DNA of 64,000 nucleotides from an uncultured Bacillales bacterium (GCA_947164155.1 CAMUVS010000002.1:16971-80970); one strand, 5' to 3'; positions 21,701-41,650 are shown, counted from the first letter of the stretch. Made by a program: numbers and translations. Notes: generated from the sequence alone by a model not told the origin.

Positions 21701-22430
21701 CTGCTCCTACTAAAGTAATACCAGCGTTATAAGCAGCATTTAAATAGTCAGATAAGATTGTAGAACATCCAGAAGACGCACCCATAGTAGAGCCATTATA
21801 ACTAACGGCGTTTTCATAACTTTGGAAAGACATATTGATGACATCTAATCCTAAGCTTTTTGCGTCATTTAAAGCGAGTTGAATAGCGCCAAATTCATAA
21901 CCATTATTGGAATTAGTCACTTTATAAACATATAGTTCAACATTAGGGGCTAAACCAAGTCCACCAACACTATTAATTGCGGCAGCCACAGTAGCAGCCA
22001 CATTAGTGCCGTGTCCTAAAGAATCATCGATATAAGAATACCCATGTTGAGAAGCTTTATAATATTCCCATTTGCTTGATGTGGAATTCCAAGCGTAATA
22101 TTTAGAATCCCCTTTTACTTTGGTTGATCCACCAACCATAAAATCTTCGTGGTCATAATTAATTCCAGAATCAATGATTCCAACTTTAACAGAATCTCCA
22201 CGATAAAAATCTAATGTATTTCCTAAATTAAGATATTGGAAAGTTTTACTATTTTGAGTGCTATATTTTGGCTCATTAGTAGGATCGCTAGAATAACTAG
22301 CAGCGTAGGCTACCATTCCTGGAGCGGCAAATTCACTTTTTTCTTTAATATTATTAGCGTTTTTAGGCATAGCAAAAAGACATCCACTTAAAATAGAGGT
22401 AAATAAAAAGGTCACAATCCTATGTCTCAT
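18714..22430 (-). CDS. Surface S8 subtilisin-family serine protease with Big_2/Big_3 Ig-like repeats and a C-terminal TM anchor
   Basis: The signal/lipobox is SILSGC. The catalytic triad contexts are VGIIDSGI (Asp), HGTNVAATVAA (His) and GTSFSAPLVTAA (Ser). There are multiple Ig-like repeats of the YxVGDxF...ATYSD type. The C-terminus is IIIVLVSGLTIISIIGFFALKNKKKD. Confidence 0.85.
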   Translation of the reverse strand: MRHRIVTFLFTSILSGCLFAMPKNANNIKEKSEFAAPGMVAYAASYSSDPTNEPKYSTQNSKTFQYLNLGNTLDFYRGDSVKVGIIDSGINYDHEDFMVGGSTKVKGDSKYYAWNSTSSKWEYYKASQHGYSYIDDSLGHGTNVAATVAAAINSVGGLGLAPNVELYVYKVTNSNNGYEFGAIQLALNDAKSLGLDVINMSFQSYENAVSYNGSTMGASSGCSTILSDYLNAAYNAGITLVGAAGNYNTDEPSYPGSNSHVINVGSLNQTGTDKAGFSNYGDTIDLVAPGYVHVAGRSSNSSYVDTSGTSFSAPLVTAAIALYKQQNPSATPAQIESALYASCDPIDDTYSEYNNWAGHGALNVAKFLGVDVEDAPTEVVINNPEIVDEELELEVGGYLDLDWTVNGVGTFDDSVNFYTLSGESNVVSVNSSGRITAVGQGSDYVVIESNADSSIYASIYVTVTSSGGSTPTVSSVTVAPSTLTLTVSNTGNLSATVNGDNNPSQTVTWSSSNTSVATVSALGVVTAVATGTATITATSQLDSSKSGSCTVTVEAAPASQTLTITRSSITSSGNYGSWSTWTATTTDNDSISGKCEIYGSTTTSLQFNKGSGYKLAALFNTTAIPGSITKIEATTASGTNRSWNAYVTSTACSSSGSTLTFGSNKTTVGNNVTIGTSSTSIGTSTAGYSYFCVQENVNSASMIAQFKITYTPKSLSSIAVKTAPTKTSYEVGDSFDPTGLVITATYSDNSTRDIAYADASSGFEFSPNTSTELSTSNTSVTIYYGNKSCSQAITVSPAKTLTSITIGSYTTSFVEGDTFSYGGTVTAHFSDSSSTDVTSSAHFTGYNMTSIGNQSVTVSYTYKGTIKTRNYNINVAIGTLSSISVSGMTLSYVKNSSFSFDGTCTATFANGYQKVVTPTSVSSPDMSKTGNKTIAVSYTYNGKTETTEYIISVTSYREVIETTTTSIYCTYDFSKLSGTSEITSTSTIQNCYSNSGGITGATTDSKSNTYANNGYLRLATGKNSGSVSFSFGSFNITDVTIVAHGWSDSEANCNMTITNGGTITTTSSSTNDTFNVHLTSATNSITVNSSKNNRICIQSITFFVNTTTSEDIGHSEDCVGLESFIDNYMHMDYTDNLGYCSDSTHHYYATAKDAFNNLNEHQRKLFTSNSAYLVEWTRLSTWASKNGDSLNATSILSSAKVVKLNITNGNNCIIIVLVSGLTIISIIGFFALKNKKKD

Positions 22431-22479: not shown

Positions 22480-23187
22480 TTATTTTTTGCTTTGTTTTTT
22501 TAATAATAAATCAATAATGCTTTGTTTAAGTGCAGTTTTTTGTTCAACATTATTATTCATTTTACTTATTTCGGTTTTATTAATATCTTCTTCTACAATC
22601 ACTTCATGGAACAAAGTTTCCCATTTATCGTGTTTTGAATATAAATATATTAGAAAATCACATTCTTCTTTAGAAGGTTCTTTTTTATATAAGTCAATAT
22701 AAGCTTTTTTGATATTCTCTATTTTAATAAAATTCCCTTTTTGCTTTTCTTCTAATAAAATTCCAACAATATCAGATTGATCTCTTTTGTATGATCTAAA
22801 TGATTTTAATTTCATCGCAATTAGATGAATTGAATCAATAATCCTAACCTCAATCAAATTAGAGTATGTTTTATAATACTCGCTATAAATGAAAATGTTT
22901 TTAGAATATGAATCTGTTTTTATAAAGTCGTCATTTAGCCATCCATAAGGAATATTATATTTATCAGCAACAATTCTAATCGCGTGTTTTAAACTATCAG
23001 ATTTATAAGGATATAGTAGACCATCCAAATCTAAAGACATCATTCTAAAAGAATATCTAATAAATATTGCTCCTCCGCCAACCAAAACAATCTGAACAGG
23101 GTGTTTACTTAGTTTTTTATATTCTTTTCCAAGTGCAGTTAGATAGAAATCTAAATTATCTCTATCTAAATAAAAATTAGGCAACAT
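22480..23187 (-). CDS. Minimal Pol-beta-fold nucleotidyltransferase-like protein (DUF6036/AbiEii-like by motif)
   Basis: VLVGGGAIFIRYSFRMMSLDLDGLL fits the hG[GS]-x9-13-DhD NTase motif. The downstream IDSIHLIAMKLKSFRSYKRDQSDIVGIL resembles the (K/R)xKDxxD helix of MNT/AbiEii-type NTases. The start overlaps the upstream HTH gene by 11 nt. Confidence 0.5.
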   Translation of the reverse strand: MLPNFYLDRDNLDFYLTALGKEYKKLSKHPVQIVLVGGGAIFIRYSFRMMSLDLDGLLYPYKSDSLKHAIRIVADKYNIPYGWLNDDFIKTDSYSKNIFIYSEYYKTYSNLIEVRIIDSIHLIAMKLKSFRSYKRDQSDIVGILLEEKQKGNFIKIENIKKAYIDLYKKEPSKEECDFLIYLYSKHDKWETLFHEVIVEEDINKTEISKMNNNVEQKTALKQSIIDLLLKKQSKK

Positions 23188-23737
23188 TTCTTAAATCTCT
23201 TTCAACAATATTAAATCTCGCAAATTCAGGGATTGAATCCTTTAATGCATTTTTTTCAATATTTAAATTGTTATTTAACACTTTGCTCAATCGCAAATCT
23301 TCTGACAAAAGGGTTTTAGTTAAAACATAATTTCTTAAGTCATTATAATCTTCTGCTATTGGTAAATTATTAATTCTTGATAAATAGTCAACAGTAGAAA
23401 GTAAATATAAAGCCTTAGCTTTTTGATAATTATTCCAATATTTCCTAATATCGTCATTTAAATAAGTTTCTATTAGAAATTGAAAATCACCTTTTTCTTT
23501 TAATAAATGCTTAATGTTACTTTTAAATGTTTCAAACTCATCAATATCATTTCTTTGTAATAATGATTCCATATCAATATTTAAAGCCTTCGCTAATCGA
23601 TAGACTGTTTCAGCACTGCATTTATTAATATCAGTTTTCCCATTAACCACCTCTAAAAGAGTGGTATATGGAATGCCGCTTATTTTACTACATTGATAGA
23701 CACTCATCCTTTTGTCATTTAATAAATCAATTAACAT
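23177..23737 (-). CDS. XRE-family helix-turn-helix protein with a ~120-aa helical C-terminal domain
   Basis: MSVYQCSKISGIPYTTLLEVVNGKTDINKCSAETVYRLAKALNIDMESLL is a classic HTH_XRE. I set the start at the ATG at 23737, 5 nt after AGGTGA. The track start is an upstream GTG. Confidence 0.75.
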   Translation of the reverse strand: MLIDLLNDKRMSVYQCSKISGIPYTTLLEVVNGKTDINKCSAETVYRLAKALNIDMESLLQRNDIDEFETFKSNIKHLLKEKGDFQFLIETYLNDDIRKYWNNYQKAKALYLLSTVDYLSRINNLPIAEDYNDLRNYVLTKTLLSEDLRLSKVLNNNLNIEKNALKDSIPEFARFNIVERDLRNVA

Positions 23738-23754
23738 ATATATCACCTAAATAT

Positions 23755-23795: not shown

Positions 23796-23821
23796 AAAAA
23801 GGATGACCAAATGGTCACCCT
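23796..23821 (-). terminator. Intrinsic terminator ending the nuclease-lipoprotein-C11 operon
   Basis: The minus strand reads AGGGTGACC-ATTT-GGTCATCCT followed by TTTTAATT. This is a 9-bp stem with one G.U pair. Confidence 0.65.
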
Positions 23822-23836
23822 GTTATGTTTTGATAA

Positions 23837-26800
23837 TTAATCTCCGTAAGAGGTTACAATGCTTCGCCAATTAGAGAAGTTGGTTTGACTTGATGTATAA
23901 ACAGTTGAAGTACTACATGTATAGCCACTACCATCTTTCATTGGGAAGAAGCAACATAATCCATACGAATTACCAGCTTTGCTTCCCGCTCTAGAGTAAG
24001 CAACTAAATTAGCGAATGCTGTTAATACAGCGCTAGTTTGAGTTGATGCACCAGAGAATGCAGAAGTAGCTCTTATCTTATTTACCACATCTTTCGCGTC
24101 GATAATACCGAAGTAGCTATATCCTTCACAGTCACTATCAGAACCATAATATTGACATGACTTCATAAGTGTCTGGAAGTTACTCTTTCCATAAGAACTA
24201 ATCATTGAATTGATGGTACTCGCCATTGTCTCCCAAGCAGACTTATACGCAGCCATATAAGATAAATCAAGATATGAGAGTGTTTGATCACTGCTAGAAC
24301 CTTGTTCAGCAAGGAAGCTATCACAAATAGCCTTAAGGATATTTGGTGTGGTCTTCTTCGCATAAGCATCATCTAACCAGTTATCATAATCCCAACCAGC
24401 ACCGGCTTCAGATTCTTCAGAAGCAACCATGTAGTTGAAGTAAGTGCTATTGAATTCCGCAATATCTTGAACCTGCATTAAGCAAGCATCATAACCAATC
24501 CATTCAAATTTATCAGATGTTGGTCTTCCTAAATCGGTGAATGAACCAGAAATCGCATTCTTCACTTTGCTGTTAGTTAAGCAGTCACTGCTATAGTTTT
24601 CGTCATAGCAGACACCACGCATAGCGCCACCATGATTCCAAAGAATCAAGCTGACTCTATCAGCTGGATAAGTTTGAACTCCCCAAGTGACAAAGCTACG
24701 GAGTGTTGATGATAAACCCATGCTTGCTTTAGTTTCTTGACTATCACGTACTAATTTCTTATTTGCAACATGGTATCTTTCAAGATAACTCTTATTAATG
24801 CCATGTGTTGTTTGCCAACATTTTGCACCGCCGGTTTCAATAACAACATTAACGTCATCTGGTTGATTTGCGACTTTCAAAATCTCTGTAATATCACCAG
24901 ACGCATAACCAGCTGCACTACTTGCGCTAGTTTGTCCGTTACTTTCAAGGTCGCTACCACAGATATAGATTAATATTGTTTGATCGTCTTGAGCTTGTTC
25001 AACAACAGTTACTGTACAAGAAGCATAAATGCTTGAGTTAGAACTTAATGTTGCTCTAATAACTGCTGATTGATTTGCAGATGCTCCACTAGCAACAGAC
25101 ACTTTTCCATCGCTAGAAACAGTAATGTTACTGCTTCCACTATATCTAGACCAAGTGACATCTTTATTTTGATTTGCGTTACTTGGTGTATATGTAACTG
25201 ATAAGTTTTTACTTCCTCCAGGGCCTAATTCAACAGTAGAAGGAGTAATGCTAATAGCGGTTGGATCAATTGGTGTTGGAGTACCATATTGAATGGTAAT
25301 AGAGGAGATTGCAGTACCGCTAGAGGCACCTTTAATACGAATATATTCGTATTGTCCGGATGGAGTTAAGGTACCAGAACCAGTAATTGTACCAAGTGAT
25401 GTTCCGCCTGAGTTGCTGCTAAATGCAGTATTGCTACCATAGATTTCAATAGATTTTCCTGATGTCATTTCTGCACTAATTTCAGTAACGATACCATCAG
25501 AAGCTGTGGAGTATAAGTATCCATTTGTGTTCCACTGTAATCCATTGTTGGTGGATTTAGTACCCATGGAGTGAATGTGATAAGTTGCTCCACTAGTTAA
25601 AGTAACCGAGAAGTCACTAGCCCATGCTGAAGAAGCATAGCTTGATAAGTTCCCAGATGTAGCATCATGATCAATGATATCTTGAGCATAAGAGCTACTT
25701 GCGGATTTAACTGTCACTGTACATGTATCAGTTTTATTTCCATCTTGAGTGGTTACCGTAATAACTGCTGTACCTTCTGCAACGCCTCTAACTAAGCCAT
25801 TAGAGACAGTTGCAACACTCGTGTTGCTAGATGACCAGCTAACAGTCTTATTGTAAGCGTTAGATGGAGAAATTGTGGCGGTTAATTGTTCCGTAGCACC
25901 TGCCTTTAAAGCTAAGACATCTTTATTTAATTCAACACTGCTAACTTCGACGTTAGAAACAGTGATTGATTTTGTAGCGCTAGTTGTTCCATTATTTGCT
26001 GTTTCTGCTGTCGCAGTAATTGTTACTGTTCCAGCAGCAACACCGGTTACAATGCCATCACTACTAACAGTAGCAATACTAGTATTGCTTGAACTGAATG
26101 TAACGTGTTTTGTATTAATATCTGATGGTGTGTAATTAACAGTTAATTGCGCGGTTGCTCCAACATCAATTGCAGAATCTCCAGAAAGAGAAATAGAAGT
26201 TGGATAAGTTGGAGTCACAGATACGATATAGTATTTAGCATCCCAAACAATAAATCTCTTACCACTAGTAGTTGATAATGTAATAGTCACATCTGTTGAG
26301 ATGTTAGAAAGCGTAACTTCACAGTAGAATTTAGATAAATCAGATGTGCTTAATGTGAATGGACTATTGCTTGAAGCTCCACTATCAGAATTTAAAGATA
26401 TTGATGACGGACTGCAGGTTGCGCCTGTTAATGAAAGTGTGACACTTTCTCCATTCCAACCAACAGCATAGAAAGCTAACTTGGTTGCTCCAGCACCTAC
26501 AGTTATAGACATATCACCACCAGAATTTCGGTTACCGACTTTAATACCGTCAAGTGTATTAATCTTACAGCTTGTGCCATTCGTTCCTGCTGTCATAGTG
26601 GCTTCAAATTCGCTTTGAGCAGGTTTTGGCGTAACAGTAACATCAATATAGCCATAAACTGCTGAACCATCGTTTGCAGTAGCAGTGATTCTGGCTGTGC
26701 CTTCAGATACACCAGTTACTAAGCCGTTTGTATTAACAGTGGCAATAGATGTGTGATTGCTTGACCAAGTAACAGTTTGATCTGTAGCATTGCCTGGGGC

Positions 26801-28513
26801 AACAGCGACATTTAATTGAAGTGTTTTGCCTTCCTCAACGCTGGTTTCAGAGCCAGTAACAGTTACTGTAGTAACTAAGATTGCGTTTACAGTAATTTCT
26901 TGCTCACCGTAAACAGTATTATCTTCGTTAGAAACTACTCTCACTTTCCATTTTCCGGCTGTGCCAAACATTGCATTAATGTCATGTCCAACACCATTAG
27001 GATCAACAAGCACTAATGAGACTTTATAACCACTAAATGAAGAATATGCTACTTCATAAGCGTTAGATGTAATTTTGTTATATACGAGGTCGGCGGTAAT
27101 TCCGCTTGTGTAATCAGATAATTTTTCTGCAGTATTAAAGATAACTATTCTACAGTTAACTGTGATTTCTGTTAATTTAACAACAAATTTAACGCTAATT
27201 GGAATTTCGATTGGAATGAAGTTTTTATAAGAAACCACAACAGTGTAATTTCCGTCTCTGGTACCACCGAAAGCAACTGATGAATCAATTGCATTTCCGC
27301 TGCTATCTTTAACAACATAGGAATATCCAGTGTTGCCACCTTTAGAGATAGCTTCAGAAGAGCCGTCACTATAGTGAGCTTCAACTCTTAATCCGTTGGC
27401 TGTATCGTAAACATCAGTTGTATTATAAATATTTGCTTTACTATCAGTTGCGGTGAAGCCAACGCAATCTTTTGGTTTGTCGTAGCTTGGTCCAGAAGAT
27501 TCCGACACCTTCTCATAAATCGCAATTGCTTTTTGATTTGTGTAAGATGTAGCCTTGTAATATCTGAAACGTTGACCATTTGGTCTATTCTGATCATCAA
27601 CTGTTTCTGCGGCATTATACCTTAAAACACTTGTGTTCGAAACAATAGAGGCATCGCCATTTTCATCGATAGTAATGGTGTTTGATGTATTTTTGGAAGT
27701 TGATTCATTTAGTTTATTGCTTCCACTGGTTCCGTAAATATATTTTCCACTTGCAGATAGAACATAATTAGAGCCAATTTCAAATTCACTTTGAGCCAAT
27801 GTCGCAGTATAAGCAATTTGATTGTTTTCAATTGTAACACTGACAAAGCTTTGAGCAACATCCAATGTTGATAAGCTACCATCAAAGGCAACACCACTTT
27901 CTTCGCAAACAATTAAACAATGATCGCCTGTATATGATCCTTGGGTAGTAACTTTTTGATAAACAGTGACTTCTTCACCACCTGCATCATTTTCATGCGC
28001 GTCAGGATTTTCAAAACAACCAATTTCATAATAAATTGATGTAATTGTTGTTGTGCCTGTTGATGTGAATTTTAAGAAATATGGATAGCTAGGCGTCTCA
28101 TAACGATGTCCACTTTCAATATCAAAGCCATCGTTATAAACATTTCCGCCATAGGCGGCTTTAACATTAAGGGTACCATTAGAGAAAACACATGTGAATG
28201 CGGTGATTGATCTCATCCAATCTTTGTTAACGAGAGTACCGCCATTATTTAATGTGACGTGTCCGCTAGTGGAACCAGCGACATTTTCATATGTAAAAGT
28301 CACATTGTTGCCCATTGCGGTCTTTTGGACTATGTCACCAACAGATGTAACTTTATTAGTAGAGTTTAAAGTTAAAGAGTAATTGTTGCTGTTTCTAGCG
28401 TTATATAAGGCTTGAGTTAAGCCAGATTTGATTGTGGTTACGCCTAAAACAATCGCGACCAATGCGCCTAATATTCCTAAGCCACCACCGATAAATTTTG
28501 TGTTTCTTTTCAT
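23837..28513 (-). CDS. Giant (1558 aa) N-terminally anchored surface protein: beta-rich modules, Big_2/Big_3 repeats and a C-terminal clostripain-family (C11) peptidase
   Basis: The N-terminal TM is FIGGGLGILGALVAIVLGV. There are at least four Big_2 repeats (...VTWSSNHTSIATVNTNGLVTGV...). The C11 domain at 23840..24982 runs QTILIYICGS...LILWNHGGAMRG...EWIGYDACLMQ. It is a clear paralogue of the C11 domain at 16475..17746. Confidence 0.8.
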   Translation of the reverse strand: MKRNTKFIGGGLGILGALVAIVLGVTTIKSGLTQALYNARNSNNYSLTLNSTNKVTSVGDIVQKTAMGNNVTFTYENVAGSTSGHVTLNNGGTLVNKDWMRSITAFTCVFSNGTLNVKAAYGGNVYNDGFDIESGHRYETPSYPYFLKFTSTGTTTITSIYYEIGCFENPDAHENDAGGEEVTVYQKVTTQGSYTGDHCLIVCEESGVAFDGSLSTLDVAQSFVSVTIENNQIAYTATLAQSEFEIGSNYVLSASGKYIYGTSGSNKLNESTSKNTSNTITIDENGDASIVSNTSVLRYNAAETVDDQNRPNGQRFRYYKATSYTNQKAIAIYEKVSESSGPSYDKPKDCVGFTATDSKANIYNTTDVYDTANGLRVEAHYSDGSSEAISKGGNTGYSYVVKDSSGNAIDSSVAFGGTRDGNYTVVVSYKNFIPIEIPISVKFVVKLTEITVNCRIVIFNTAEKLSDYTSGITADLVYNKITSNAYEVAYSSFSGYKVSLVLVDPNGVGHDINAMFGTAGKWKVRVVSNEDNTVYGEQEITVNAILVTTVTVTGSETSVEEGKTLQLNVAVAPGNATDQTVTWSSNHTSIATVNTNGLVTGVSEGTARITATANDGSAVYGYIDVTVTPKPAQSEFEATMTAGTNGTSCKINTLDGIKVGNRNSGGDMSITVGAGATKLAFYAVGWNGESVTLSLTGATCSPSSISLNSDSGASSNSPFTLSTSDLSKFYCEVTLSNISTDVTITLSTTSGKRFIVWDAKYYIVSVTPTYPTSISLSGDSAIDVGATAQLTVNYTPSDINTKHVTFSSSNTSIATVSSDGIVTGVAAGTVTITATAETANNGTTSATKSITVSNVEVSSVELNKDVLALKAGATEQLTATISPSNAYNKTVSWSSSNTSVATVSNGLVRGVAEGTAVITVTTQDGNKTDTCTVTVKSASSSYAQDIIDHDATSGNLSSYASSAWASDFSVTLTSGATYHIHSMGTKSTNNGLQWNTNGYLYSTASDGIVTEISAEMTSGKSIEIYGSNTAFSSNSGGTSLGTITGSGTLTPSGQYEYIRIKGASSGTAISSITIQYGTPTPIDPTAISITPSTVELGPGGSKNLSVTYTPSNANQNKDVTWSRYSGSSNITVSSDGKVSVASGASANQSAVIRATLSSNSSIYASCTVTVVEQAQDDQTILIYICGSDLESNGQTSASSAAGYASGDITEILKVANQPDDVNVVIETGGAKCWQTTHGINKSYLERYHVANKKLVRDSQETKASMGLSSTLRSFVTWGVQTYPADRVSLILWNHGGAMRGVCYDENYSSDCLTNSKVKNAISGSFTDLGRPTSDKFEWIGYDACLMQVQDIAEFNSTYFNYMVASEESEAGAGWDYDNWLDDAYAKKTTPNILKAICDSFLAEQGSSSDQTLSYLDLSYMAAYKSAWETMASTINSMISSYGKSNFQTLMKSCQYYGSDSDCEGYSYFGIIDAKDVVNKIRATSAFSGASTQTSAVLTAFANLVAYSRAGSKAGNSYGLCCFFPMKDGSGYTCSTSTVYTSSQTNFSNWRSIVTSYGD

Positions 28514-28527
28514 GATGTAGTAATTAT

Positions 28528-29433
28528 TTAATTTAACTCCTGTAACCTATATAAGAACGGTAACGCCATATACTTAGAGATACTATTATCTACATATGCA
28601 GAAAAATAACCTAAGGTTATATTAAACATTATATATCCTAGACTTTCAACATTATTTTCAATAACCGCTCCATCATCGATACTACCAGTACCCTCTTCAG
28701 GGTCAATGTTCGAGTGAATATCCCAGTATTTATTAGTCTTACTAGACGCATCTAATTTAACTTTTCCTTGATGGGTACAAACTAAATATTCTCCAGTTTG
28801 AGCTTCTAAAGTCATGCCTTTATCCTCTAAACCAAGAACAAATTCAATTGATCCTTCACCTAAAGATGTGATTGTTTTTTTATCACTACTAAAGGTAGAT
28901 TCCACTGGATTAAGTTTAGAGTGAAGAGTGTCTAAAGACGCGGTTACTCCATGCTCTGGAGAGGCCAAAACTAAAACATCACCATCACTTAATGAATCAT
29001 AATCATCTACTCTCACCCAAGCTTTTTCTTTGGTTGGTAAAGAGTCAACAATATTCACTGTGCAACGAGCTTTAATATCTGGATTAACAGTGTATGTACA
29101 AGTAATAACCGTGCTTCCTATATTGCTTCCTTTAGAGGATATGCCACCATATTTAGAAACATCTACTAAAGAACTATCAAAAGTAAATGTAAAAGGAAAT
29201 TCACTGACATCAATATCTTGGTTATCCTTATCTTTAATTCCAGGATTTAAATAATGCTTATTTTTATCGTTTTTTAGAATATTAATACGGTAAAAGTCAA
29301 AATACATATATCCTGCATATTCTTCAGGATCTTCACTAGGTGATTCACTAGGAGAAGTAGTATTTTCTCCACAGCTTACCATCATAAATGTCGATAAGGC
29401 TAATAACGATGTCAATCTAAGTATTTTATTCAT
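28528..29433 (-). CDS. Lipoprotein of unknown function; its C-terminal half is the module shared with both flanking genes
   Basis: The lipobox is FMMVSCG. It lies 3 nt after the nuclease stop and 14 nt before the giant protease start. Confidence 0.6.
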   Translation of the reverse strand: MNKILRLTSLLALSTFMMVSCGENTTSPSESPSEDPEEYAGYMYFDFYRINILKNDKNKHYLNPGIKDKDNQDIDVSEFPFTFTFDSSLVDVSKYGGISSKGSNIGSTVITCTYTVNPDIKARCTVNIVDSLPTKEKAWVRVDDYDSLSDGDVLVLASPEHGVTASLDTLHSKLNPVESTFSSDKKTITSLGEGSIEFVLGLEDKGMTLEAQTGEYLVCTHQGKVKLDASSKTNKYWDIHSNIDPEEGTGSIDDGAVIENNVESLGYIMFNITLGYFSAYVDNSISKYMALPFLYRLQELN

Positions 29434-29436
29434 CGA

Positions 29437-32400
29437 TTATTTTCTTTTTTTCTTAATGATTAATAAGGTAGTAAACGCTAAAACGGAAATTGTAGCAATA
29501 ACAACAACAATCATCATTGTTCCGTTTTCGCTCATATCGGTAAATGAATTAGTTATAGCATTATTCATAAATGTGAAATCATTAACAAACGGAGTGGAAT
29601 CTTCACATGCTTTAGCCCAAGCAAGATATCTAGCAAGTTCGGCTTCATAAGTGCTATCGTTTTGTAAAGTTTCAATAATACCAGATTGTTCACTTTCTAA
29701 GGCCAACAAAGCGGTCTTAGCATCTTTATATAAGTTAGCGGTTTTACATGCACCAGTTCCATCTCCGTCATATGCTGGATCACCAATAAATAAGAAGTTA
29801 ACACCCCAGGCAGCGAGTTTATCTTCGCTTGGAGTATGAATCACAATTTGATCAGCAGAGCTTAAAGAGATTTGATTACCATTATGATATGCTGCAACAC
29901 ATCTTAAGAATTCAACAGTATCATCCTCAGTAATAGTTTTTAACTTTTCAACAATTGCGGTTTTAGCAGTAGAGTTAACACTCTTATGAATAAAGATAGT
30001 AACTGTATCACTAGATTTATTTAAATCATATGCTGAGAATGATTGGTCAGCTGTACTAGTTCCAGAGAATCCATCAATCTTTGTAATGTTAGTGCCGTCT
30101 ACTTTAAGATTAAGTAAGGATGTTCTTGTACTTTGATTACCAGCCATAAAGTCACTAACAGAAGTATATTCATTAGCATCTGGTAAAGGATGTGTACCTA
30201 ATTTATTAACAGTAGATGCTGTTGCACCACAATCACATTCCACTAAACCATTATATTTATAGACTTTAACATGTAACATGACATAATCACCAACGGAAAC
30301 CCCAGAATACCAAACTGGATGTTTGGAATCTGAACCATAAACGCAGAAGCCGTATTCACCTTCTTGAATATAATATGTATATCCGTTAACTCCAACAACT
30401 ACGCCTTTAATGTCATACCAACTAGCGCTTGAATATGATGTAGGTAAGGTGATAGTTCCATCATAGAAGCTAGATAAAGGAGTTGTGACTGTAGTATTCA
30501 TAGTCACGTTAATTGAATATGTAGCAGAAACAGTAACTCCGTTTTCTGTATAATAAGCAGTAACTGTTTGATTACCAACTTCTTGCATATTATAGCCACT
30601 GAATGAGGCAGTAGTCACAACCGCACTACTTCCATCATTATAATGAGCGGTAACAGTTGGCTTAACAAATGCATCACCTTGAACATAAGAAGTTTTTTCG
30701 TTGCTAATTGAAATAGAAGTCACAGCTTTTTCCGTAACTGGAGTAGAGCCTGATTGAAGTTTATAAAGTTGAACAGCTTTTTGACCAGCATCCTTATAAT
30801 ATCTAAATCTTGCTTGATCAGAAGCGTTGTTATATCTAAGAGACGCTCCACCTGAACCGACAATAGAAGCATTGCTGCTAGAAATTGTAACAGTATTTTT
30901 AATAGGTGAAGAACTTGTTTCCATACCATTAGTATTTGATGATCTATTTATATAAAGACCACTAGCAGAACGAATAGAAAATCCTGAATCATAACTTGCT
31001 AAAGTAAACTTTGCAGCATTTGTTGTAGCGTTAGATTCAATAACTCCGTCTGAAATGGTAACAGAAATGGTATTTTTAGTGGCGTCTAAAGTTGATAATC
31101 CACCATTAAAAGCAACATTACCTGCTTCATAGACTATTAAATAATCTCCAGCAGTAACGTCACTAGTAGATGTGACTTTAACATATCCGCTTTCACTTGG
31201 AGCAGGTTTCTCACTAATCGAAACTGTATATGTTTCACTTAATCCACCAAAAGACACAGTAATAGTTTGACTACTAACTGCGGTGCTAGAATCAAAACCA
31301 GTAAATGTCGCTTGTTCAGTAACTACTGCAGTTGTGCCGTTATTATATGTAGCGGTAACGGTTGGTTTAACTAAAGAATCACCAACATAATATTCAGTGG
31401 TCAAACCACCTAAAGTAATAGAAGTTAATGTAACTGCTTGAACATTAATCGTGTAGGTAGCAGTCTTAGTAACTCCATTTTCAGTATAACTAACTGTGAT
31501 AGTTTTATTTCCAGCGGTAGACATATCTGGAGTAGATACAGATGTTGGAGTAACATTTTCACCTGCAACAGTGTCTTCATATCTTGCAGTACAAGTTCCA
31601 GTAAAAGTAAATTTGTCTCCAACGTAATAACTCGTTGTTTGTCCATTCAATTCAATAGAGCTTAACACTAGTTGTTTAGCGGCAACGTAAATTATATAAG
31701 ATGTTGTCTTAGTGACGCCTTCTGAACTATATGTCAAAGTGATTGTTTTATTACCACTAGTAGACATATCTGGAGTAGAAACACTGTCAGGAATAACAGT
31801 TTCAATATTGCCATCACTGTAAGTGGCTTTTAATATTCCATCAAAAGAGAATGTATCGCCTACTTCATAGGTTGTAGTCATACCGCTGACAGAAATAGAA
31901 GAAAGAACTACTTCTTCAGGATCAACACCGCCACTAGATGGGTCACCATAAGTAATTGTGTAACTATTAATATATAAGGAATTAGCAGAGCCAGTGATAG
32001 TTAAAGTAATGTTTTCACCAGTACCAGTAATATGAGTGTCATTAGTCAATGAGACATGAACATCTCGATAAGAAGTACCATAACTATCATTATCGTACCA
32101 AGAATTAAATCCACCAGAAGTACTGGCTAAATTAGTGGAACCAGCAACAGCGGTAAAGCTACCTCCGCCACTAGAACCATTAGATTTCATGTTTAATGTA
32201 ATGCCGGTAATAACTTTTCCGTCATATCCAGATAAAGTTAAAATCGCATTTTTACCAGAAGTAATTTGTCCTTTAGTGCTATAAGTTTGACTATAGCTAG
32301 CGCTACTACCAGAAGGAACAGTGCCACTAGAAGTTACAGCACTAGTAGAAGAAACTGTGTAAGTTGCGGTTTTGACATTTTCAACATCGCTAGCATCTCC

Positions 32401-33648
32401 GCCACCTTCTCCACTTCCTCCACCACTAGAATTAACAGTGATAAGAACTTGAGCGGTTGCGGTTTTAGCAGTGCCGTTATCATCGTAAGAATAGGTAAGC
32501 GTTAAAGTAGAAACACCCTCAGAAAGACCTTCAATAGTTACTCCGTTAGTGTAGCTACCTCTACTATAGTAAGTAGAACTTACAACAGAATAATCAGTTA
32601 ATGACCAACTAACTGAAGCGTTATATGCACCATCAACAAATGGTAAGAAATTAACTGTATCACCAACTTTTAATGTATAAGCAGTTGAATTAGTAGTTGC
32701 AATATTATATCCATCATCCACTCTAATTCCAGCAGTATGCGCTACTGTTGGATATGAGGCATTAGAGCACATACTTTTGATTGTACTATTAACATTGCCC
32801 CAAATTTTACAAGCGTATTCTGGGTGATCAATAAATGGGTTTCTATTGCCTTGAAGATATTCAGCGCCTTCGTTTCTATTCTTCTCTCTATCAGAAACAG
32901 GATAATTAATATTCCATTTAATAAGAGTTTCTAAATTACCCATAGTGTGACCGCTACCAAAACTTTGTCCGGTAACGGAGTCAGTGCCACTAGGAGTAGT
33001 GTTATTCGGAGCAAGAATTAATTTAGAGTTAACTAAAGTACAATAGAAAGTAATTCTAGCAGCTTCACCTCTAGATTCAGCACTATATCCAGCGGTATAT
33101 GGATCCCATCCATTTGAAGAATGGTTCATTCCTTCAACAAAGAAGGAGTTACCTCTAGAGCTATTTTCTGCAGGTACTGTAGGTCTAGGCATATGGATAT
33201 CGGCATCTGGATAAGGTGAACCAGCGTCTCCCTTACTACCACCACCATGGCTATTAGGCCAAACGTGTTCTCTATTCCAGCTTGTGGCAGATGTAAATGT
33301 ATAAAAACTTGAAATTTGAGTTCCGTATGGCTGACCATTACTATCATATTTCACATAATTAGGATCATAGTCGGTATATTTATATTGTCCAGAAGGACTA
33401 GTTCCCATAGAGGAATAGCCAACTGTAGATTGTCTTTTAGATAAATTTAAAGATCTTAAATCAGTTAATAAGGCATTCCCGGATTTTGAATCGTCGATGG
33501 AATTGTAGTAAGTCGCTCCATCTCCGTTAGTGTAAGTAGCAAACGCCACTTTAGCTTCATTATTAGTGTGACTAACACCAATAAAAGTTCCCACACTTAA
33601 AGCAAGTGCAAAAGATGATAAAATGAGTGCAATTTTGTTCTTTTTCAT
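29437..33648 (-). CDS. Membrane-anchored extracellular endonuclease I-family nuclease with Ig-like repeats, an OB-fold and a C-terminal TM anchor (1403 aa)
   Basis: It starts with a signal peptide. The Endonuclease_1 hallmarks are WNREHVWPNSHGG, ADIHMPRP, RGEAARITFY and LQGNRNPFIDHPEYA (about 32794..33531). Four Big_3-type repeats follow. An OB-like segment DIKGVVVGVNGYTYYIQEGEYGFCVYG...GDYVMLHVKVYKYNGLVE lies at about 30199..30426. The C-terminus is MMIVVVIATISVLAFTTLLIIKKKRK. Confidence 0.8.
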   Translation of the reverse strand: MKKNKIALILSSFALALSVGTFIGVSHTNNEAKVAFATYTNGDGATYYNSIDDSKSGNALLTDLRSLNLSKRQSTVGYSSMGTSPSGQYKYTDYDPNYVKYDSNGQPYGTQISSFYTFTSATSWNREHVWPNSHGGGSKGDAGSPYPDADIHMPRPTVPAENSSRGNSFFVEGMNHSSNGWDPYTAGYSAESRGEAARITFYCTLVNSKLILAPNNTTPSGTDSVTGQSFGSGHTMGNLETLIKWNINYPVSDREKNRNEGAEYLQGNRNPFIDHPEYACKIWGNVNSTIKSMCSNASYPTVAHTAGIRVDDGYNIATTNSTAYTLKVGDTVNFLPFVDGAYNASVSWSLTDYSVVSSTYYSRGSYTNGVTIEGLSEGVSTLTLTYSYDDNGTAKTATAQVLITVNSSGGGSGEGGGDASDVENVKTATYTVSSTSAVTSSGTVPSGSSASYSQTYSTKGQITSGKNAILTLSGYDGKVITGITLNMKSNGSSGGGSFTAVAGSTNLASTSGGFNSWYDNDSYGTSYRDVHVSLTNDTHITGTGENITLTITGSANSLYINSYTITYGDPSSGGVDPEEVVLSSISVSGMTTTYEVGDTFSFDGILKATYSDGNIETVIPDSVSTPDMSTSGNKTITLTYSSEGVTKTTSYIIYVAAKQLVLSSIELNGQTTSYYVGDKFTFTGTCTARYEDTVAGENVTPTSVSTPDMSTAGNKTITVSYTENGVTKTATYTINVQAVTLTSITLGGLTTEYYVGDSLVKPTVTATYNNGTTAVVTEQATFTGFDSSTAVSSQTITVSFGGLSETYTVSISEKPAPSESGYVKVTSTSDVTAGDYLIVYEAGNVAFNGGLSTLDATKNTISVTISDGVIESNATTNAAKFTLASYDSGFSIRSASGLYINRSSNTNGMETSSSPIKNTVTISSSNASIVGSGGASLRYNNASDQARFRYYKDAGQKAVQLYKLQSGSTPVTEKAVTSISISNEKTSYVQGDAFVKPTVTAHYNDGSSAVVTTASFSGYNMQEVGNQTVTAYYTENGVTVSATYSINVTMNTTVTTPLSSFYDGTITLPTSYSSASWYDIKGVVVGVNGYTYYIQEGEYGFCVYGSDSKHPVWYSGVSVGDYVMLHVKVYKYNGLVECDCGATASTVNKLGTHPLPDANEYTSVSDFMAGNQSTRTSLLNLKVDGTNITKIDGFSGTSTADQSFSAYDLNKSSDTVTIFIHKSVNSTAKTAIVEKLKTITEDDTVEFLRCVAAYHNGNQISLSSADQIVIHTPSEDKLAAWGVNFLFIGDPAYDGDGTGACKTANLYKDAKTALLALESEQSGIIETLQNDSTYEAELARYLAWAKACEDSTPFVNDFTFMNNAITNSFTDMSENGTMMIVVVIATISVLAFTTLLIIKKKRK

Positions 33649-33831
33649 AATGTTGTCCTATAGGCGCAAAAATAACAAAGGGCTATAAAACCTTCCAACA
33701 CAGAGTTATGTCCTATATTTCTTGTGCATATATATATTAATATATAATTCTATATTATGTAATAATTATTTAAATTAACATTTTAGTCAATTATAAAAAA
33801 ATGCAATATACGCTTTCTATGGGCGTTTTTG

Positions 33832-33862
33832 AAAATAAAAAGCCAAGTTTTTTTCTTGGCTT
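33832..33862 (-). terminator. Intrinsic terminator after oppF
   Basis: The minus strand reads AAGCCAAG-AAAAAAA-CTTGGCTT followed by TTTATTTT. Confidence 0.6.
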
Positions 33863-33869
33863 CATCAAA

Positions 33870-35387
33870 CTATTTAAGTTTTTCTTTATATTTTTCTAAC
33901 TCAACTGAGTTCGCTAAGACCCAGTGACCTGGAGTGATCTCAACAAGTTTAGGAGCTTCTTTAGAATAATCATGCTCATTAGCAGGAATATAAACATATC
34001 TAGTTCTCTTCTTTTCACTTAGTGGATCTGGTTTAGGAATAGCGGAAAGTAAAGCGTGAGTATATGGGTGAAGTGGGTGAGCGAATAATTCATCACTACT
34101 AGCAAGTTCCACGATTTCTCCATAATACATAACTGCAATTCGATCACAGAAATATTTAACAACCGATAAGTCGTGAGCAATAAACATAATGGTTAAACCC
34201 ATTTCTTCTTTTAAATCATTTAACAAGTTAATGATTTGGGCTCTAATAGAGACGTCAAGCGCACTAATAGGCTCATCACAAATTAAGAATCTAGGATTCA
34301 TTACTAAAGCACGAGCAATACCGATACGTTGTCTTTGTCCGCCCGAGAATTCATGAGGATATCTAGAAGCATATTCGGGAAGTAAGCCAACTTTAATAAG
34401 AACATCTCTAACTTTTTGAGAGTTCTTGAATTTATTATATTGACCTTGAATATGTAAGCCTTCTTGAATGATATCTTCAACAGTCATTCTTGGGTCTAAT
34501 GAGTCAACAGGATCTTGGAAGATCATTTGCATCTTCGACATTAATTTCTTATCGACGTGTTTGTTGTCATATTTAATTTGAGCAATTTGTTCAATTTGCT
34601 CTTTTTCGACTTCGTCAATAAGGTCTTTAACAGCTTGAATCTTTTCTCTATATTCCGCTTTTAAAGCATCCGCGGTTTGTTGAGTTTGTTCATCAATCTT
34701 TTTCTTTTTAGAAGCTCTAACAGTTGCTTTAAATTCTTTAAGTTTTTCACTTAATTCAAGCATCTTTTTTCTTCTAATTTCGATTTCCGAAGAATGTTCT
34801 TTATTAATTTCTTCGAATTTTAAAGCTTTAGCTTCTTCATCTTCGATATTAGAAGCTTGGTCCATTCTTTCTTTATATCTAGACTTGATTTCTTTAATTT
34901 CTGCTTCTAAGCTAGATAATTCATCATTAATCTTTTCAATTTCTGGAATTAAGCCAGTTGTGTCTAATACTTTCTCTAATTCAGAGGCTAATTCTTTCTT
35001 TAATTCTTTAATTTTTCTTCTGCCTCTAATTTTGGTCCATTTAATTTCTTTTTCATTCCATCTAGATCCAGCAGAAGTTCTTCTACCTTCAAAATAAACA
35101 GAACCAGAAGTAATGTTATATAGTCTAATTAAAGATCTACCAGTTGTGGTTTTACCACATCCAGATTCTCCAACAACTCCAAAACATTCACCCTTTTTAA
35201 TATCAAAAGAGACATCATGAACCGCTTTTGTTTTAAAAGCACTACGACCGTGGCCAAACTTAAAGAACTGCTTTAAATGACGAACAGAAAGTTCAATTCC
35301 TTGTTCATTAAGTTCAGGTCTAAACGTTGGTTTTCTTGGCTTATATTTCGCTTTAATGCGATAAATGGAGCTATTAATAAAATTCAT
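33870..35387 (-). CDS. oppF: Oligopeptide ABC transporter ATPase OppF with a ~175-aa K/E-rich insertion
   Basis: It has Walker A GESGCGKT, Q-loop MIFQDPVDSLDP, signature FSGGQRQR, Walker B LICDEPISALD, H-loop IAHDL and the oligopeptide C-terminal extension. The insertion lies between the Walker A region and the Q-loop. Confidence 0.9.
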   Translation of the reverse strand: MNFINSSIYRIKAKYKPRKPTFRPELNEQGIELSVRHLKQFFKFGHGRSAFKTKAVHDVSFDIKKGECFGVVGESGCGKTTTGRSLIRLYNITSGSVYFEGRRTSAGSRWNEKEIKWTKIRGRRKIKELKKELASELEKVLDTTGLIPEIEKINDELSSLEAEIKEIKSRYKERMDQASNIEDEEAKALKFEEINKEHSSEIEIRRKKMLELSEKLKEFKATVRASKKKKIDEQTQQTADALKAEYREKIQAVKDLIDEVEKEQIEQIAQIKYDNKHVDKKLMSKMQMIFQDPVDSLDPRMTVEDIIQEGLHIQGQYNKFKNSQKVRDVLIKVGLLPEYASRYPHEFSGGQRQRIGIARALVMNPRFLICDEPISALDVSIRAQIINLLNDLKEEMGLTIMFIAHDLSVVKYFCDRIAVMYYGEIVELASSDELFAHPLHPYTHALLSAIPKPDPLSEKKRTRYVYIPANEHDYSKEAPKLVEITPGHWVLANSVELEKYKEKLK

Positions 35388-35389
35388 AA

Positions 35390-37141
35390 TTATTTTTCTG
35401 AACTAACTCCTTTCTTCGCATTCTTTAAAGAATTCTCAATACGAGTTTTCACAATCTTAGGCATTTCCACTTTAGGGGCTCTTGGATCAAGTAACCAAGT
35501 AGCAGCGTAGTGAGTATCGCTAATTTTAAACATTGGTGGCTCTTTTTTAAAATCAATAGCCATCGCATATTTACTACGTAAAGCAAAAGCGTCACCTTTA
35601 GGTGGATAAATCATATTTGGAGGTGTACCTGGAATCGCTTCAAGTTTTTCTTTACTATCAATATCAGGAATAGAAGATAGTAACGCCCAGGTATATGGAT
35701 GACGTGGGTCATAGAAGATATCATCTTCAGTACCATATTCAACAATTTTACCAGCGTACATAACCGCCACACGGTCTGCCATATTAGCCACAACACCTAA
35801 ATCGTGAGTAATAAAGATAACAGAAATATTTCTTTCTTCTTTTAATCTATTGATTAACTCTAAGATTTGGGCTTGAATAGTAACGTCAAGAGCAGTAGTT
35901 GGTTCATCACAAATTAAGATATCTGGATTAGCGGTTAAGGCAATAGCGATAACAATACGTTGTCTCATACCTCCAGAGAATTCAAATGGATATTGTCTAA
36001 ATCTCTTTTCAGGATTAGAAATACCAACTTCTTTCATAATCTTTAAGGCTCTTGCTTTAGCTTGAGCTTTGGTGATTTTAATTGAAGAAATGTAGTCTTG
36101 TTTAGCTTTTTTACAAGTTTCTTTTATTTCAGTTTTATCAGTTAAATATGATTTCGCATAGTTAACTTTATATAAACATTTTTCTTTAACTTCTTTTTTA
36201 TATTCTTTAACTTCTTTTTTCGCAACTTTACTTCTAGCCTTGTATTTTGCTTTATTTTCTTTAATTAAAGGAACGAATTTCGCTTTTAAAGAAGATTTTG
36301 ATTCACTATATTCATCTTTAATTGAGGCATATTCTTTCTGAGTATTAGCCTTAATATCTTTAAGTTTTTGAGGAACTTCCGCTTTTAATTTTGCGTATTC
36401 TTCTTTAATTCTTTTAGATTCAGAATTATACCATTCGCTGACTTTAGCGATTTGCTCATCTCTTTCCGCTTTTAAAACTGCTCCTTGAGAAGCTAATTCT
36501 TCTTTTGAAAGAGATTTAATCTTAGCTTTATATTCCTCATTAATATGAGATTTTTTACCATTATATTCAATTTTTAAAGTATAGAATTGACCGCTTTTAA
36601 ATAAGCCAGGTTCATTTTTAATTTTTGTTTTTTCTTTTTTAGCTTCACCTTTGGTGAATTTTAATTTTTCTTTTCTAGCCGCTAATAAAGATTTATATTC
36701 GGTTTGAGCGTTTTTATAGGCTACTAATTCATCAGCGACTTTATCGTTAAACATTCTCTTAAGTTTAGAGTTATTAATTAACATCGCTTCTGTAATTTGT
36801 TTACCAATACGCACAATTGGGTTAAGCGAAGATAAAGGATCTTGGAAAATCATTCCAATTTTATGGCCTCTAATACGATGGAACTCGTCTTCACTAACTT
36901 TAGTTAAGTCTTCTCCTTCGTACATAATAGAGCCGCCCATAATACGACCATTCGCGCTTAAAATACCCATGATCGCTTTATTAGTGACAGATTTACCTGA
37001 GCCTGATTCACCAACGATACATAAGGTTTCACCTTTATATAAGTCAAAAGAGACACCTCTAACAGCTTGAACATACCCATAGTCTGTTGAGAAATTAATC
37101 TTAAGATCTTTAACGGAAAGCACTACTTGTTTTTCTTCCAT
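35390..37141 (-). CDS. oppD: Oligopeptide ABC transporter ATPase OppD with a ~230-aa K/E-rich insertion
   Basis: It has Walker A GESGSGKS, Q-loop MIFQDPLSSLNP, signature FSGGMRQR, Walker B LICDEPTTALD and H-loop ITHDLG. The insertion lies between the Q-loop and the signature motif. Confidence 0.9.
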   Translation of the reverse strand: MEEKQVVLSVKDLKINFSTDYGYVQAVRGVSFDLYKGETLCIVGESGSGKSVTNKAIMGILSANGRIMGGSIMYEGEDLTKVSEDEFHRIRGHKIGMIFQDPLSSLNPIVRIGKQITEAMLINNSKLKRMFNDKVADELVAYKNAQTEYKSLLAARKEKLKFTKGEAKKEKTKIKNEPGLFKSGQFYTLKIEYNGKKSHINEEYKAKIKSLSKEELASQGAVLKAERDEQIAKVSEWYNSESKRIKEEYAKLKAEVPQKLKDIKANTQKEYASIKDEYSESKSSLKAKFVPLIKENKAKYKARSKVAKKEVKEYKKEVKEKCLYKVNYAKSYLTDKTEIKETCKKAKQDYISSIKITKAQAKARALKIMKEVGISNPEKRFRQYPFEFSGGMRQRIVIAIALTANPDILICDEPTTALDVTIQAQILELINRLKEERNISVIFITHDLGVVANMADRVAVMYAGKIVEYGTEDDIFYDPRHPYTWALLSSIPDIDSKEKLEAIPGTPPNMIYPPKGDAFALRSKYAMAIDFKKEPPMFKISDTHYAATWLLDPRAPKVEMPKIVKTRIENSLKNAKKGVSSEK

Positions 37142-39291: not shown

Positions 39292-39292
39292 C

Positions 39293-40333
39293 TTATTTCT
39301 TTTCTCCCATTCTGATACGTGGGTCAATAAAGCCGTATGACAAGTCTAAAACAATGCCCGCTAATAAACCGACTGTGGTAAAGATTGCCATATCCACCAT
39401 TAAGACGTTATAGTCTTTTTCGTTAATGGATCTGATATATAAGTCACCAATTCCAGGAATGCCATATAATTTTTCAAGAATCATTGAACCACCAAAGATA
39501 CCAATGAATTCCGCTAAAATAGATGGAAGAATTGGAACGAATGCATTTTTTAAAGCGTGTCTAGTGATTGCTTGATTTTTAGTCAAACCTTTAGTTCTTG
39601 CTAATAACAAATATTCACTAGACATAACTTCACAAAGTTCTGCTCTAACAAAACGAGTATAACCACAAATACTGCCAAAGGATAAAGACATCACCGGAAT
39701 GAAATAAGCTAAAATCTTATTACCGATAGTGTCACTCGGATTCGGCCACATCGACGGCAGTAGTTGATTTTTATAACATAAGAAATACATCAAGAATGAA
39801 ATAACAACGAATGATGGGATAGAAATAAAGATCATGACCAATGTGGAAATAAGGTGGTCAACCCATGTATTTTTCTTTAATCCAGCTAAAATACCTAAGC
39901 CGATACCAAGAGGAACAGATACCACAACGGAAACAATATTTATATACATAGATGTAGGTAATCTAGAGGCAATAATATCCGTAGCCTGAGATCTTAATTC
40001 AATAGATGTCGATTCACCCCAGTCCCACGCTGTAAAGATATTCTTTAGCCAAGCAAAATACTGCTCTAAGATAGGGCGTGCATAGAAATATTCATCAACA
40101 CCTTCAATATGGAATTGAGCAAGTAATTTCCCATACCCATCTACTTCATGATCAAAAACAACAACATATCCTAAGTTGAGCTGTTTTAAATAGAAGGCGT
40201 GTTTGACGTTTTCTTTAGCGCCGAAAGTAGTATCTGCAATACCTAATGATTTAACTAAAATAAAGGTAATGGAAAGGATAATAAAAGCAGTAATAAGAGC
40301 AAGAACGATTCTTTTAATTACGTACTTTAGCAT
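39293..40333 (-). CDS. oppB: Oligopeptide ABC permease OppB
   Basis: It is a six-TM BPD permease with MLKYVIKRIVLALITAFIILSITFILV and the EAA loop LLARTKGLTKNQAITRHALKNA. Confidence 0.9.
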   Translation of the reverse strand: MLKYVIKRIVLALITAFIILSITFILVKSLGIADTTFGAKENVKHAFYLKQLNLGYVVVFDHEVDGYGKLLAQFHIEGVDEYFYARPILEQYFAWLKNIFTAWDWGESTSIELRSQATDIIASRLPTSMYINIVSVVVSVPLGIGLGILAGLKKNTWVDHLISTLVMIFISIPSFVVISFLMYFLCYKNQLLPSMWPNPSDTIGNKILAYFIPVMSLSFGSICGYTRFVRAELCEVMSSEYLLLARTKGLTKNQAITRHALKNAFVPILPSILAEFIGIFGGSMILEKLYGIPGIGDLYIRSINEKDYNVLMVDMAIFTTVGLLAGIVLDLSYGFIDPRIRMGEKK

Positions 40334-40379
40334 TACTCTTTTTCCTTTCTAACTTTACTCTAGTGTAAAGTGTTTATTT

Positions 40380-40409
40380 ATTATAGTACAAACGATTAAT
40401 AAAAAGCAA
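40380..40409 (-). promoter_or_regulatory. Possible internal promoter for oppBCDF
   Basis: The minus strand reads TTGCTT-18 nt-TATAAT, about 45 nt upstream of the oppB ATG. Confidence 0.3.
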
Positions 40410-40434
40410 TATAACAATTATTAATAATTGGCAT

Positions 40435-40460
40435 CAAAAAAGAGCGTATTTCTACGCCCT
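40435..40460 (-). terminator. Intra-operon intrinsic terminator/attenuator between the binding-protein genes and oppB
   Basis: The minus strand reads GGGCGTA-GAAA-TACGCTC followed by TTTTTTG. This is a 7-bp stem with one G.U pair. Confidence 0.55.
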
Positions 40461-41648: not shown

Positions 41649-41650
41649 AA

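Follow-up and report, generated by a model that had tools for sequence, protein, structure and literature searches.

A predicted beta-trefoil module exchanged among surface nucleases and proteases at an Opp-linked locus of uncultured rumen Bacilli

The three-gene unit and its products

The DNA considered here is a stretch of 64,000 nucleotides (nt) from an uncultured Bacillales bacterium (GCA_947164155.1 CAMUVS010000002.1:16971-80970), in the following called the window, in which all positions are counted from the first letter. The host belongs to a lineage of low-GC rumen Bacilli / 'Erysipelotrichaceae'. On the minus strand of the window three neighbouring open reading frames (ORFs) code for a nuclease of the Endonuclease I family (29437..33648, 1403 amino acids (aa)), a lipoprotein (28528..29433, 301 aa) and a giant protease of the C11 family (23837..28513, 1558 aa). 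Their products contain a homologous module of about 150 aa, which is predicted to be a beta-trefoil and which, in comparison with related loci, appears as a cassette moving between different enzymes.

The genes are separated by 3 nt between nuclease and lipoprotein (29434-29436) and by 14 nt between lipoprotein and protease (28514-28527), as read from the DNA. The best two terminator-like hairpins of the 22-36 kb interval mark exactly the borders of this three-gene unit. Here, the upstream hairpin (33839..33863, minus strand) ends oppF and the downstream one (23800..23821, minus strand) follows the protease gene, each with a 9-bp stem and a T-run. The 190-nt spacer upstream of the nuclease gene contains promoter-like hexamer pairs (33762..33819, minus strand; TAGAAA-18-TATAAT and TTGACT-17-AATTAT), which are matches to the consensus and nothing more. 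The tightness of the junctions is kept in two related loci, L007, where a 0-nt gap and a 4-nt overlap are present, and L008. By sequence, the unit therefore displays the usual features of an operon, namely a single strand, short gaps, flanking promoter-like and terminator-like elements and no internal terminator. Because of the tight gaps, the bracketing terminators and the equally tight junctions in relatives, it is plausible that the three genes form one transcription unit, as the initial annotation of this DNA had proposed.

The nuclease is composed of an N-terminal signal, the catalytic domain, immunoglobulin-like (Ig-like) repeats, the trefoil module, an OB-like region and a C-terminal transmembrane anchor. 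The catalytic Endonuclease_1 domain (PF04231; aa 117-277, 32818..33300, minus strand) scores 75.3 bits in Pfam at a cut-off of 25, which assigns the protein to the Endonuclease I family. Its sequence contains NREHVWPNSHGG (including NREHVWP) as well as NRNPFIDHPE, which we take to be the His-Me finger catalytic motifs from what is known of Vvn and EndoI. Furthermore, Pfam identifies Big_3 repeats. The C-terminus consists of a hydrophobic anchor and a KKKRK tail (29440..29520, minus strand), both recognized in the sequence; no NCBIfam sorting-signal model matches the nuclease and its C-terminal part contains no LPXTG. The last ~430 aa as a whole (aa ~970-1403; 29440..30740) comprise Big_3, the OB-like region, a helical part, the transmembrane anchor and KKKRK. 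They are 58% identical to the C-termini of two S8 subtilases from the related loci L001 (L001:10867-14592) and L002 (L002:5640-9368), and therefore the C-terminus of the nuclease appears to be a shared anchoring cassette.

The giant protease harbors its Peptidase_C11 catalytic domain near the C-terminus (aa 1199-1514; 23972..24919, minus strand; Pfam 120.4 bits, cut-off 25.8). The score, together with LWNHGG and GYDACLM, presumably the His/Cys dyad motifs of clan CD, places the protein in the C11 (clostripain) family. Pfam further detects four Big_2 domains, and the membrane anchor of this protein is N-terminal.

The lipoprotein displays a signal peptide and a lipobox, with the N-terminus MNKILRLTSLLALSTFMMVSC followed by G and a predicted lipidation site at Cys21. 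At least 90% of 22 lipoprotein homologues retain this cysteine. In the AlphaFold2 (AF2) model, which has a mean predicted local distance difference test (pLDDT) value of 87, an Ig-like domain (aa ~40-130) precedes the trefoil (aa ~134-300). The former description of this protein as essentially the module on a lipid anchor is thus not tenable. Relatives of the lipoprotein carry one or two extra Big_3 domains. Down to 30% identity, its homologues form 47 clusters, which originate from metagenome-assembled genomes of uncultured rumen 'Bacilli / Bacillales / Erysipelotrichaceae'.

Homology, predicted fold and family of the module

The module of the nuclease (aa ~815-966; 30751..31206, minus strand) was recovered by pairwise comparison, by the family profile, by AF2 and by Foldseek, and that of the protease (aa ~182-339; 27497..27970, minus strand) by pairwise comparison and by the family profile with 163 bits. 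Compared directly, the two copies (nuclease aa 822-~965, protease aa 185-~336) share 35% identity with an E-value of 7e-19. The copy in the lipoprotein (28534..29034, minus strand) is divergent. Here, pairwise BLASTP against the module is weak (E 0.022), a profile of 33 sequences without the lipoprotein yields 14.5 bits (E 3e-4), and hhalign against the lipoprotein-free small profile gives E 2.8e-4. A broad profile was built from 311 family copies and the two window copies, with zero lipoprotein sequences. Using this profile, the window lipoprotein reaches 29.7 bits (E 7e-9), compared with 5.5 bits for the next-best ORF of the window and at most 6.2 bits for reversed sequences, and the lipoprotein homologues among the matches listed all score 21-35 bits. 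An hhalign comparison of the lipoprotein family with the broad profile gives a probability of 82% (E 1e-5) and is collinear over the full length, first to last strand. The reciprocal search of the nuclease with a hidden Markov model of the lipoprotein trefoil was not significant (E 0.76), although the correct region was matched, and the homology of the lipoprotein copy is therefore based on the fold together with the broad family profile. With the lipoprotein as its divergent member, the proposal that all three products share a homologous module is well-founded. The broad family profile revealed no further copies in the ORFs of the window.

With the family alignment as input, AF2 predicts an all-beta module of 15 strand segments (pLDDT 94, predicted template-modelling (TM) score 0.89). 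A Foldseek search of the PDB with this model returned essentially only beta-trefoils among the best 50 matches, with TM values of 0.4-0.6 and sequence identities of 11-18%. These are the fungal ricin-B-type lectins PPL, CCL2 and MPL, FRG1, fascin, botulinum HA33/HA17 and FGF. For the C-terminal half of the lipoprotein, the matches are the trefoils of lysenin, fascin and HA33. The shared module is assigned to the beta-trefoils on these predicted structures.

On the sequence level, no match of Pfam or NCBIfam covers the module span in nuclease or protease, and searches of PDB sequences with both profiles gave nothing significant (fascin, E ~0.6-0.9). Pfam Fascin is the sole sequence model with a signal, and this signal is weak. 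The lipoprotein scores 15.8 bits, and two family members are weakly picked up (E ~2e-6). In a scan of 57 other family members, 26.7 bits were attained by one. Since the cut-off of PF06268 is 23.1 bits and the modules of nuclease and protease give no match at E<=0.1, they are not placed in the Fascin family. On the structural level, FRG1 (2yug, 8i0w_2) gives the highest query TM of the module with 0.59-0.61, and fascin recurs among the matches.

The ricin-B lectins, as well as the carbohydrate-binding modules (CBMs) of family CBM13, share the predicted fold and are the top Foldseek matches (PPL 9kl2, CCL2 2lie/4uso, MPL 4ion, HA33/HA17; E 7.5e-4 to 1e-2, TM 0.5-0.6). Like these, the module is non-catalytic and appended to secreted hydrolases. 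The sequence identity to these proteins is 12-18%. In contrast to them, the module has no obvious three-fold sequence symmetry and no glycosidase partners were found for it. Membership in CBM13/ricin-B was rejected, since (QxW)x3 is absent and neither Ricin_B_lectin nor RicinB_lectin_2 of Pfam matches at E<=0.1. CBM92, the 'bacterial fascin-like domain', is a bacterial trefoil on secreted enzymes which binds beta-1,6-glucan or carrageenan, and in which WExF ends each of the three subdomains (PMC11039641). This family was rejected as well, because WExF is found in neither copy and the nuclease module is devoid of any Trp. Although both are bacterial trefoils on secreted enzymes, the partners here are nucleases and proteases instead of carbohydrate-active enzymes, and no CBM92 structure is among the best 50 structural matches of the module.

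The module thus belongs to a sequence family that has no name yet, although its binding fold is well known. The initial annotation had been unable to place it in any named family, which still applies to Pfam and NCBIfam, whereas the predicted fold can now be named. A generic fold such as that of a CBM, which had been regarded as an argument against a special role, is what was found on the level of the fold, but not on the level of the sequence family. Searches of the literature yielded no account of a trefoil attached to an Endonuclease I or C11 protein.

The family is very large. When 1.84 billion cluster representatives were searched exhaustively by HMMER with a lipoprotein-free profile, 4,679 clusters (50% identity) were found at E<=1e-3, of which 2,127 reached E<=1e-30. 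Two or more copies (2-4) are present in 129 of the 146 top proteins. A word-indexed search added many short secreted proteins which consist of a signal peptide and one module, one of them labelled Paludibacteraceae; among 16 short module proteins read, two (P0043, P0045) have C-terminal tails which by eye resemble those of type IX secretion. About 25 positions, polar and charged ones among them, show a conservation of at least 80% over 313 copies drawn from distant taxa. The conserved residues comprise K824, T826, E841, N859, N907, N940, R947, R949, Y951, Q956 and K963. Two stand-alone module proteins on other metagenomic contigs, L010:8001-8651 (216 aa) and L011:8001-8771 (256 aa), adjoin giant LTD/Flg_new proteins, and the gene in L010 lies ~1.5 kb from a gene for a 411-aa Endonuclease_1 protein. 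Their C-terminal tails look irregular, and both may be truncated or frameshifted gene calls.

A Pfam scan of 124 module-bearing proteins revealed partner domains of extracellular types throughout. Many proteins contain extracellular repeats, namely Big_2, Flg_new/Flg_new_2, CHB_HEX_C_1, Fn3_assoc, BACON, dockerin and PKD. As catalytic partners, Endonuclease_1 was found in 16 proteins, Endonuclease_NS in two, and Peptidase M6 and Peptidase C25 in one each, and the nucleic-acid-binding OB-fold occurs in 4-5 proteins. A phmmer cross-check of the top 146 proteins found Endonuclease I in 15, and C11 or S8 in none.

This pattern raises the question of whether the module is a nuclease-associated domain, which recognizes DNA or DNA-containing material such as an extracellular DNA matrix or nucleoprotein debris, and which would target nuclease and protease to one nucleoprotein substrate. 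In the scanned set, 18 nucleases stand against two peptidases and no glycosidase, with the OB-fold in a few proteins more. The stand-alone gene close to an Endonuclease_1 gene and near LTD giant proteins fits as well, and so do the conserved K824, R947, R949 and K963 together with several tyrosines. On the contrary, the list of the top 150 proteins was ordered by summed score with the nuclease copy as seed, and the census is hence biased. Furthermore, most members of the family lack a nuclease domain, and no DNA-binding trefoil is among the best 50 Foldseek matches. The copies are also acidic, with a median isoelectric point (pI) of 4.8 and a net charge of -4, and even those in nuclease proteins have a median pI of 4.76, unlike a non-specific DNA binder. 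Non-specific electrostatic binding of DNA was down-weighted for this reason. In the window, the pI values are 8.1 for the nuclease copy, 4.7 for the protease copy and 4.5 for the lipoprotein trefoil. Taken together, recognition of DNA is an unlikely function of the module, though one to be kept in mind. The idea of a common substrate targeting, including DNA material, had already been put forward for this locus; the strong association with nucleases speaks for it to some extent, the acidic nature of the module to some extent against it. A more far-reaching version sees in the whole trefoil family a dedicated targeting module of gut and rumen anaerobes for extracellular DNA or nucleoprotein matrix, inserted in secreted nucleases and at this locus in a clan-CD protease as well. 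It would recognize DNA or a ligand associated with DNA by a conserved Lys/Arg/Tyr site on an acidic domain, with the lipoprotein as tethered receptor or adaptor of one and the same scavenging system. This we consider speculative and still less likely.

Exchange of the module among related loci

The comparison of near-identical genes localizes the exchange. Between the nucleases of the window and of L002 (L002:265-4533), blocks of 50 aa are 92-100% identical with the exception of aa ~815-980, where the identity drops to 22-26%. The DNA displays the same picture. Here, the identity is 47-57% from ~31210 to ~30710, exactly the span of the module, while the flanks next to it show ~80-100%, adjacent 60-nt windows outside the module ~83-93%, and the rest of the gene averages 92%. 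In comparison to the nuclease of L001 (L001:5798-9994) the situation is reversed. The module is 94-100% and the middle part 90-100% identical, whereas what has been replaced is the catalytic domain (aa 51-250, 38-64%) along with aa 1051-1250 (38-70%). The nuclease gene is, as judged by these alignments, a mosaic. A similar exchange is seen in the S8 subtilase of the window (18714..22430), which is 74-96% identical to its orthologue L004:7562-11314 except for aa 551-700 (14-26%); in L004 this segment is a trefoil module (61.5 bits), in the window a different domain without assignment. The alignments thus show that divergent alleles or unrelated domains take the place of the module with sharp boundaries, and they identify it as an interchangeable accessory cassette which, depending on the strain, sits in nuclease, C11 or S8 scaffolds.

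Such an exchange would also be expected if the module were a variable, exposed surface decoration without a specific ligand, kept under diversifying selection to avoid phage-receptor or predator/host recognition. The sharp breakpoints between alleles of otherwise near-identical genes are in line with this, as is the mosaic nature of other domains in the same proteins. Nevertheless, the strong conservation of about 25 positions across the 313 copies suggests a conserved function and not free variation. A mere decoration is therefore an improbable explanation.

The related loci differ less in gene order than in the distribution of the module. In the window, an S8 subtilase with PA domain, a giant OppA, a Big_2 protein and OppBCDF are followed by the nuclease, the lipoprotein, the giant C11 protease, a helix-turn-helix (HTH) protein with a DUF6036 protein, an S8 subtilase and a C11 protease, and of the enzymes the nuclease and the giant C11 protease carry the module. 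L007, whose lipoprotein is 45% identical, has the order Opp, nuclease, lipoprotein, giant C11, S8, C11, C11, and L003 the order nuclease, lipoprotein, giant C11; in both, the enzymes lack the module. It is also absent from the enzymes of L005, L008 and L009, which encode Opp, a methyltransferase, the lipoprotein, a giant C11 protease and an S8 subtilase. L004 contains the lipoprotein, a giant C11 protease and then an S8 subtilase, with the module on both enzymes, and in L001 and L002, which contain the nuclease, the lipoprotein, two S8 subtilases and a small C11 protease, only the nuclease carries it. Thus, the module is missing from the giant C11 proteases of L003, L005 and L007 and from the nucleases of L003 and L007. 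These comparisons show that gene order and lipoprotein are conserved, whereas the presence of the module on the enzymes is not.

Within the family, the two clear copies of the window are each other's relatives only at ranks 227 of 289 and 143 of 266. Nearer kin is found in unrelated metagenomic proteins, at 63% identity for the nuclease copy and 48% for the protease copy, and by this comparison the two modules are shown not to be each other's nearest relatives.

This distribution bears on the possibility that the module serves assembly, homotypic or heterotypic, and joins nuclease, protease and anchored lipoprotein in one surface complex. Three adjacent and probably co-transcribed products with a homologous domain would be well suited for such a complex, and the lipoprotein gene is present in every related locus. 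However, L003 and L007 keep the order of the three genes with the module on neither enzyme, and in L001 and L002 the nuclease is its only carrier. The ranks given above also imply that there is no co-evolution signal between the window copies. Moreover, the family occurs mostly as tandem copies within single giant proteins, across phyla. An assembly device is therefore highly improbable. The initial annotation had gone in this direction by proposing a device dedicated to the three proteins, which is not borne out in view of a family of several thousand clusters, of these ranks and of the swapped or absent module in orthologues.

No element of the locus is more stable than the lipoprotein, and its trefoil is conserved much better than the accessory domains of the adjoining enzymes. 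It lacks the two arginines of the family (RFRYY). A large protease, either C11 or S8, is encoded directly downstream in the window, in L001-L005 and in L007. Since the copy is divergent, far more acidic, devoid of the RFRYY arginines, stable at the locus and located upstream of a large protease, the lipoprotein is probably a protein of its own, with a binding or accessory role at the surface, and not a stand-alone duplicate of the module of the enzymes.

Some beta-trefoils inhibit serine proteases or clan-CD cysteine proteases. One could therefore imagine that the lipoprotein is a membrane-tethered trefoil inhibitor, or guardian, akin to the Kunitz-STI or fungal mycocypin inhibitors, which would shield the surface of its own cell against the C11 or S8 protease encoded next to it, and that the modules of the enzymes are functionally unrelated to it. 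The constant protease neighbor and the conservation of the lipoprotein trefoil would fit. Yet Pfam gives no match to the Kunitz_legume or mycocypin inhibitor families, and inhibitor structures are absent from the best 50 Foldseek matches of both the module and the lipoprotein models. In addition, no recognized protease adjoins the most distant lipoprotein homologue, L006, and the adjacency in the other loci may simply reflect the synteny of the island. An inhibitor is therefore, in our view, a poor candidate.

Role of the module and the surrounding island

On balance, the module is probably an interchangeable ligand-targeting cassette of surface hydrolases, within a scavenging island linked to Opp. 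The island would serve to break down extracellular protein and nucleic acid on the cell surface, so that the products can be taken up. Here, the module would act as a non-catalytic ligand binder, targeting or holding the membrane-anchored enzyme on substrate-bearing material, comparable to CBMs and lectin domains. It is the fold, together with the modularity and the partner domains, that makes such a ligand-binding role appear the most likely one.

Several points weigh against this reading. The ligand-binding role is a prediction, the structures of the module are predicted models, and the co-transcription of the three genes is deduced from sequence. Furthermore, the trefoil lacks the sugar-site signatures of both CBM13 (QxW x3) and CBM92 (WExF x3). 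Finally, none of the 124 module-bearing proteins scanned contains a glycoside hydrolase, which is unusual for a classical CBM and disfavors this role.

As a case of modular surface enzymes with a common accessory binding domain, the locus is an ordinary one. Cellulosomal CBMs and dockerins, as well as the LTD and OB domains of ExeM/NucH-type nucleases, are likewise single cassettes which are shuffled among several scaffolds encoded in the neighborhood. In contrast to these, the cassette family described here is unnamed and sits on a nuclease and on clan-CD or S8 proteases beside Opp, where the setting is probably a wall-less or membrane-anchored one. Scavenging loci of Mollicutes combine a surface nuclease or protease with an ABC transporter. 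The window resembles them, as an anchored nuclease and proteases are encoded beside an Opp transporter with enlarged subunits; it differs by the giant multidomain enzymes of 1,400-1,560 aa, by other nuclease and protease families and by its origin from an uncultured clade of rumen Bacilli.

As a by-product, a very large trefoil family of more than 4,600 clusters became apparent, which gut and rumen bacteria carry in giant secreted proteins and for which neither Pfam nor NCBIfam contains a model. Non-specific nucleases are its only frequent catalytic partners so far. If this family were named and its ligand found, thousands of regions now called 'hypothetical' would gain an annotation, and the targeting of extracellular nucleases in anaerobic communities could perhaps be accounted for. 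The sharp swaps of alleles show that these uncultured rumen Bacilli remodel their surface hydrolases via the exchange of domain cassettes.

Further segments of ~130-150 aa without a Pfam match are present in the enzymes, namely nuclease aa ~425-570, protease aa ~630-765 and ~945-1075, and aa ~195-350 of the L003 protein (L003:10744-15372). By eye they end alike ('TITYG', 'TIQYG', 'LTLTYG'). In the giant C11 proteases of L003 and L005, one such segment of ~150 aa fills the slot which is occupied by the trefoil in the window protease. A kinship of these slot-filling segments with the other segments of the window is an impression by eye only, since BLAST and jackhmmer gave no significant link.

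The Opp transporter (33870..48882) has enlarged subunits, with an OppA-like SBP_bac_5 protein of 1035 aa, an OppC of 728 aa and an OppD of 583 aa, in which the ABC domain is split. It is preceded by a 1374-aa S8 subtilase with PA domain and a conserved 389-aa Big_2 protein, and the synteny of this whole block extends to L007 and L008. A 694-aa ORF (14320..16404) at the hydrolase island's downstream end matches neither Pfam at E<=1e-3 nor the trefoil profile. Between the giant C11 protease and the S8 subtilase, a two-gene insert (22480..23746) encodes an Xre-type HTH protein and a DUF6036 nucleotidyltransferase. It is located in the block of lowest GC content of the window (28%) and is absent from this position in L005, L007 and L008, where the S8 gene directly follows the C11 gene; this insert may represent a toxin-antitoxin or defence-type insertion.

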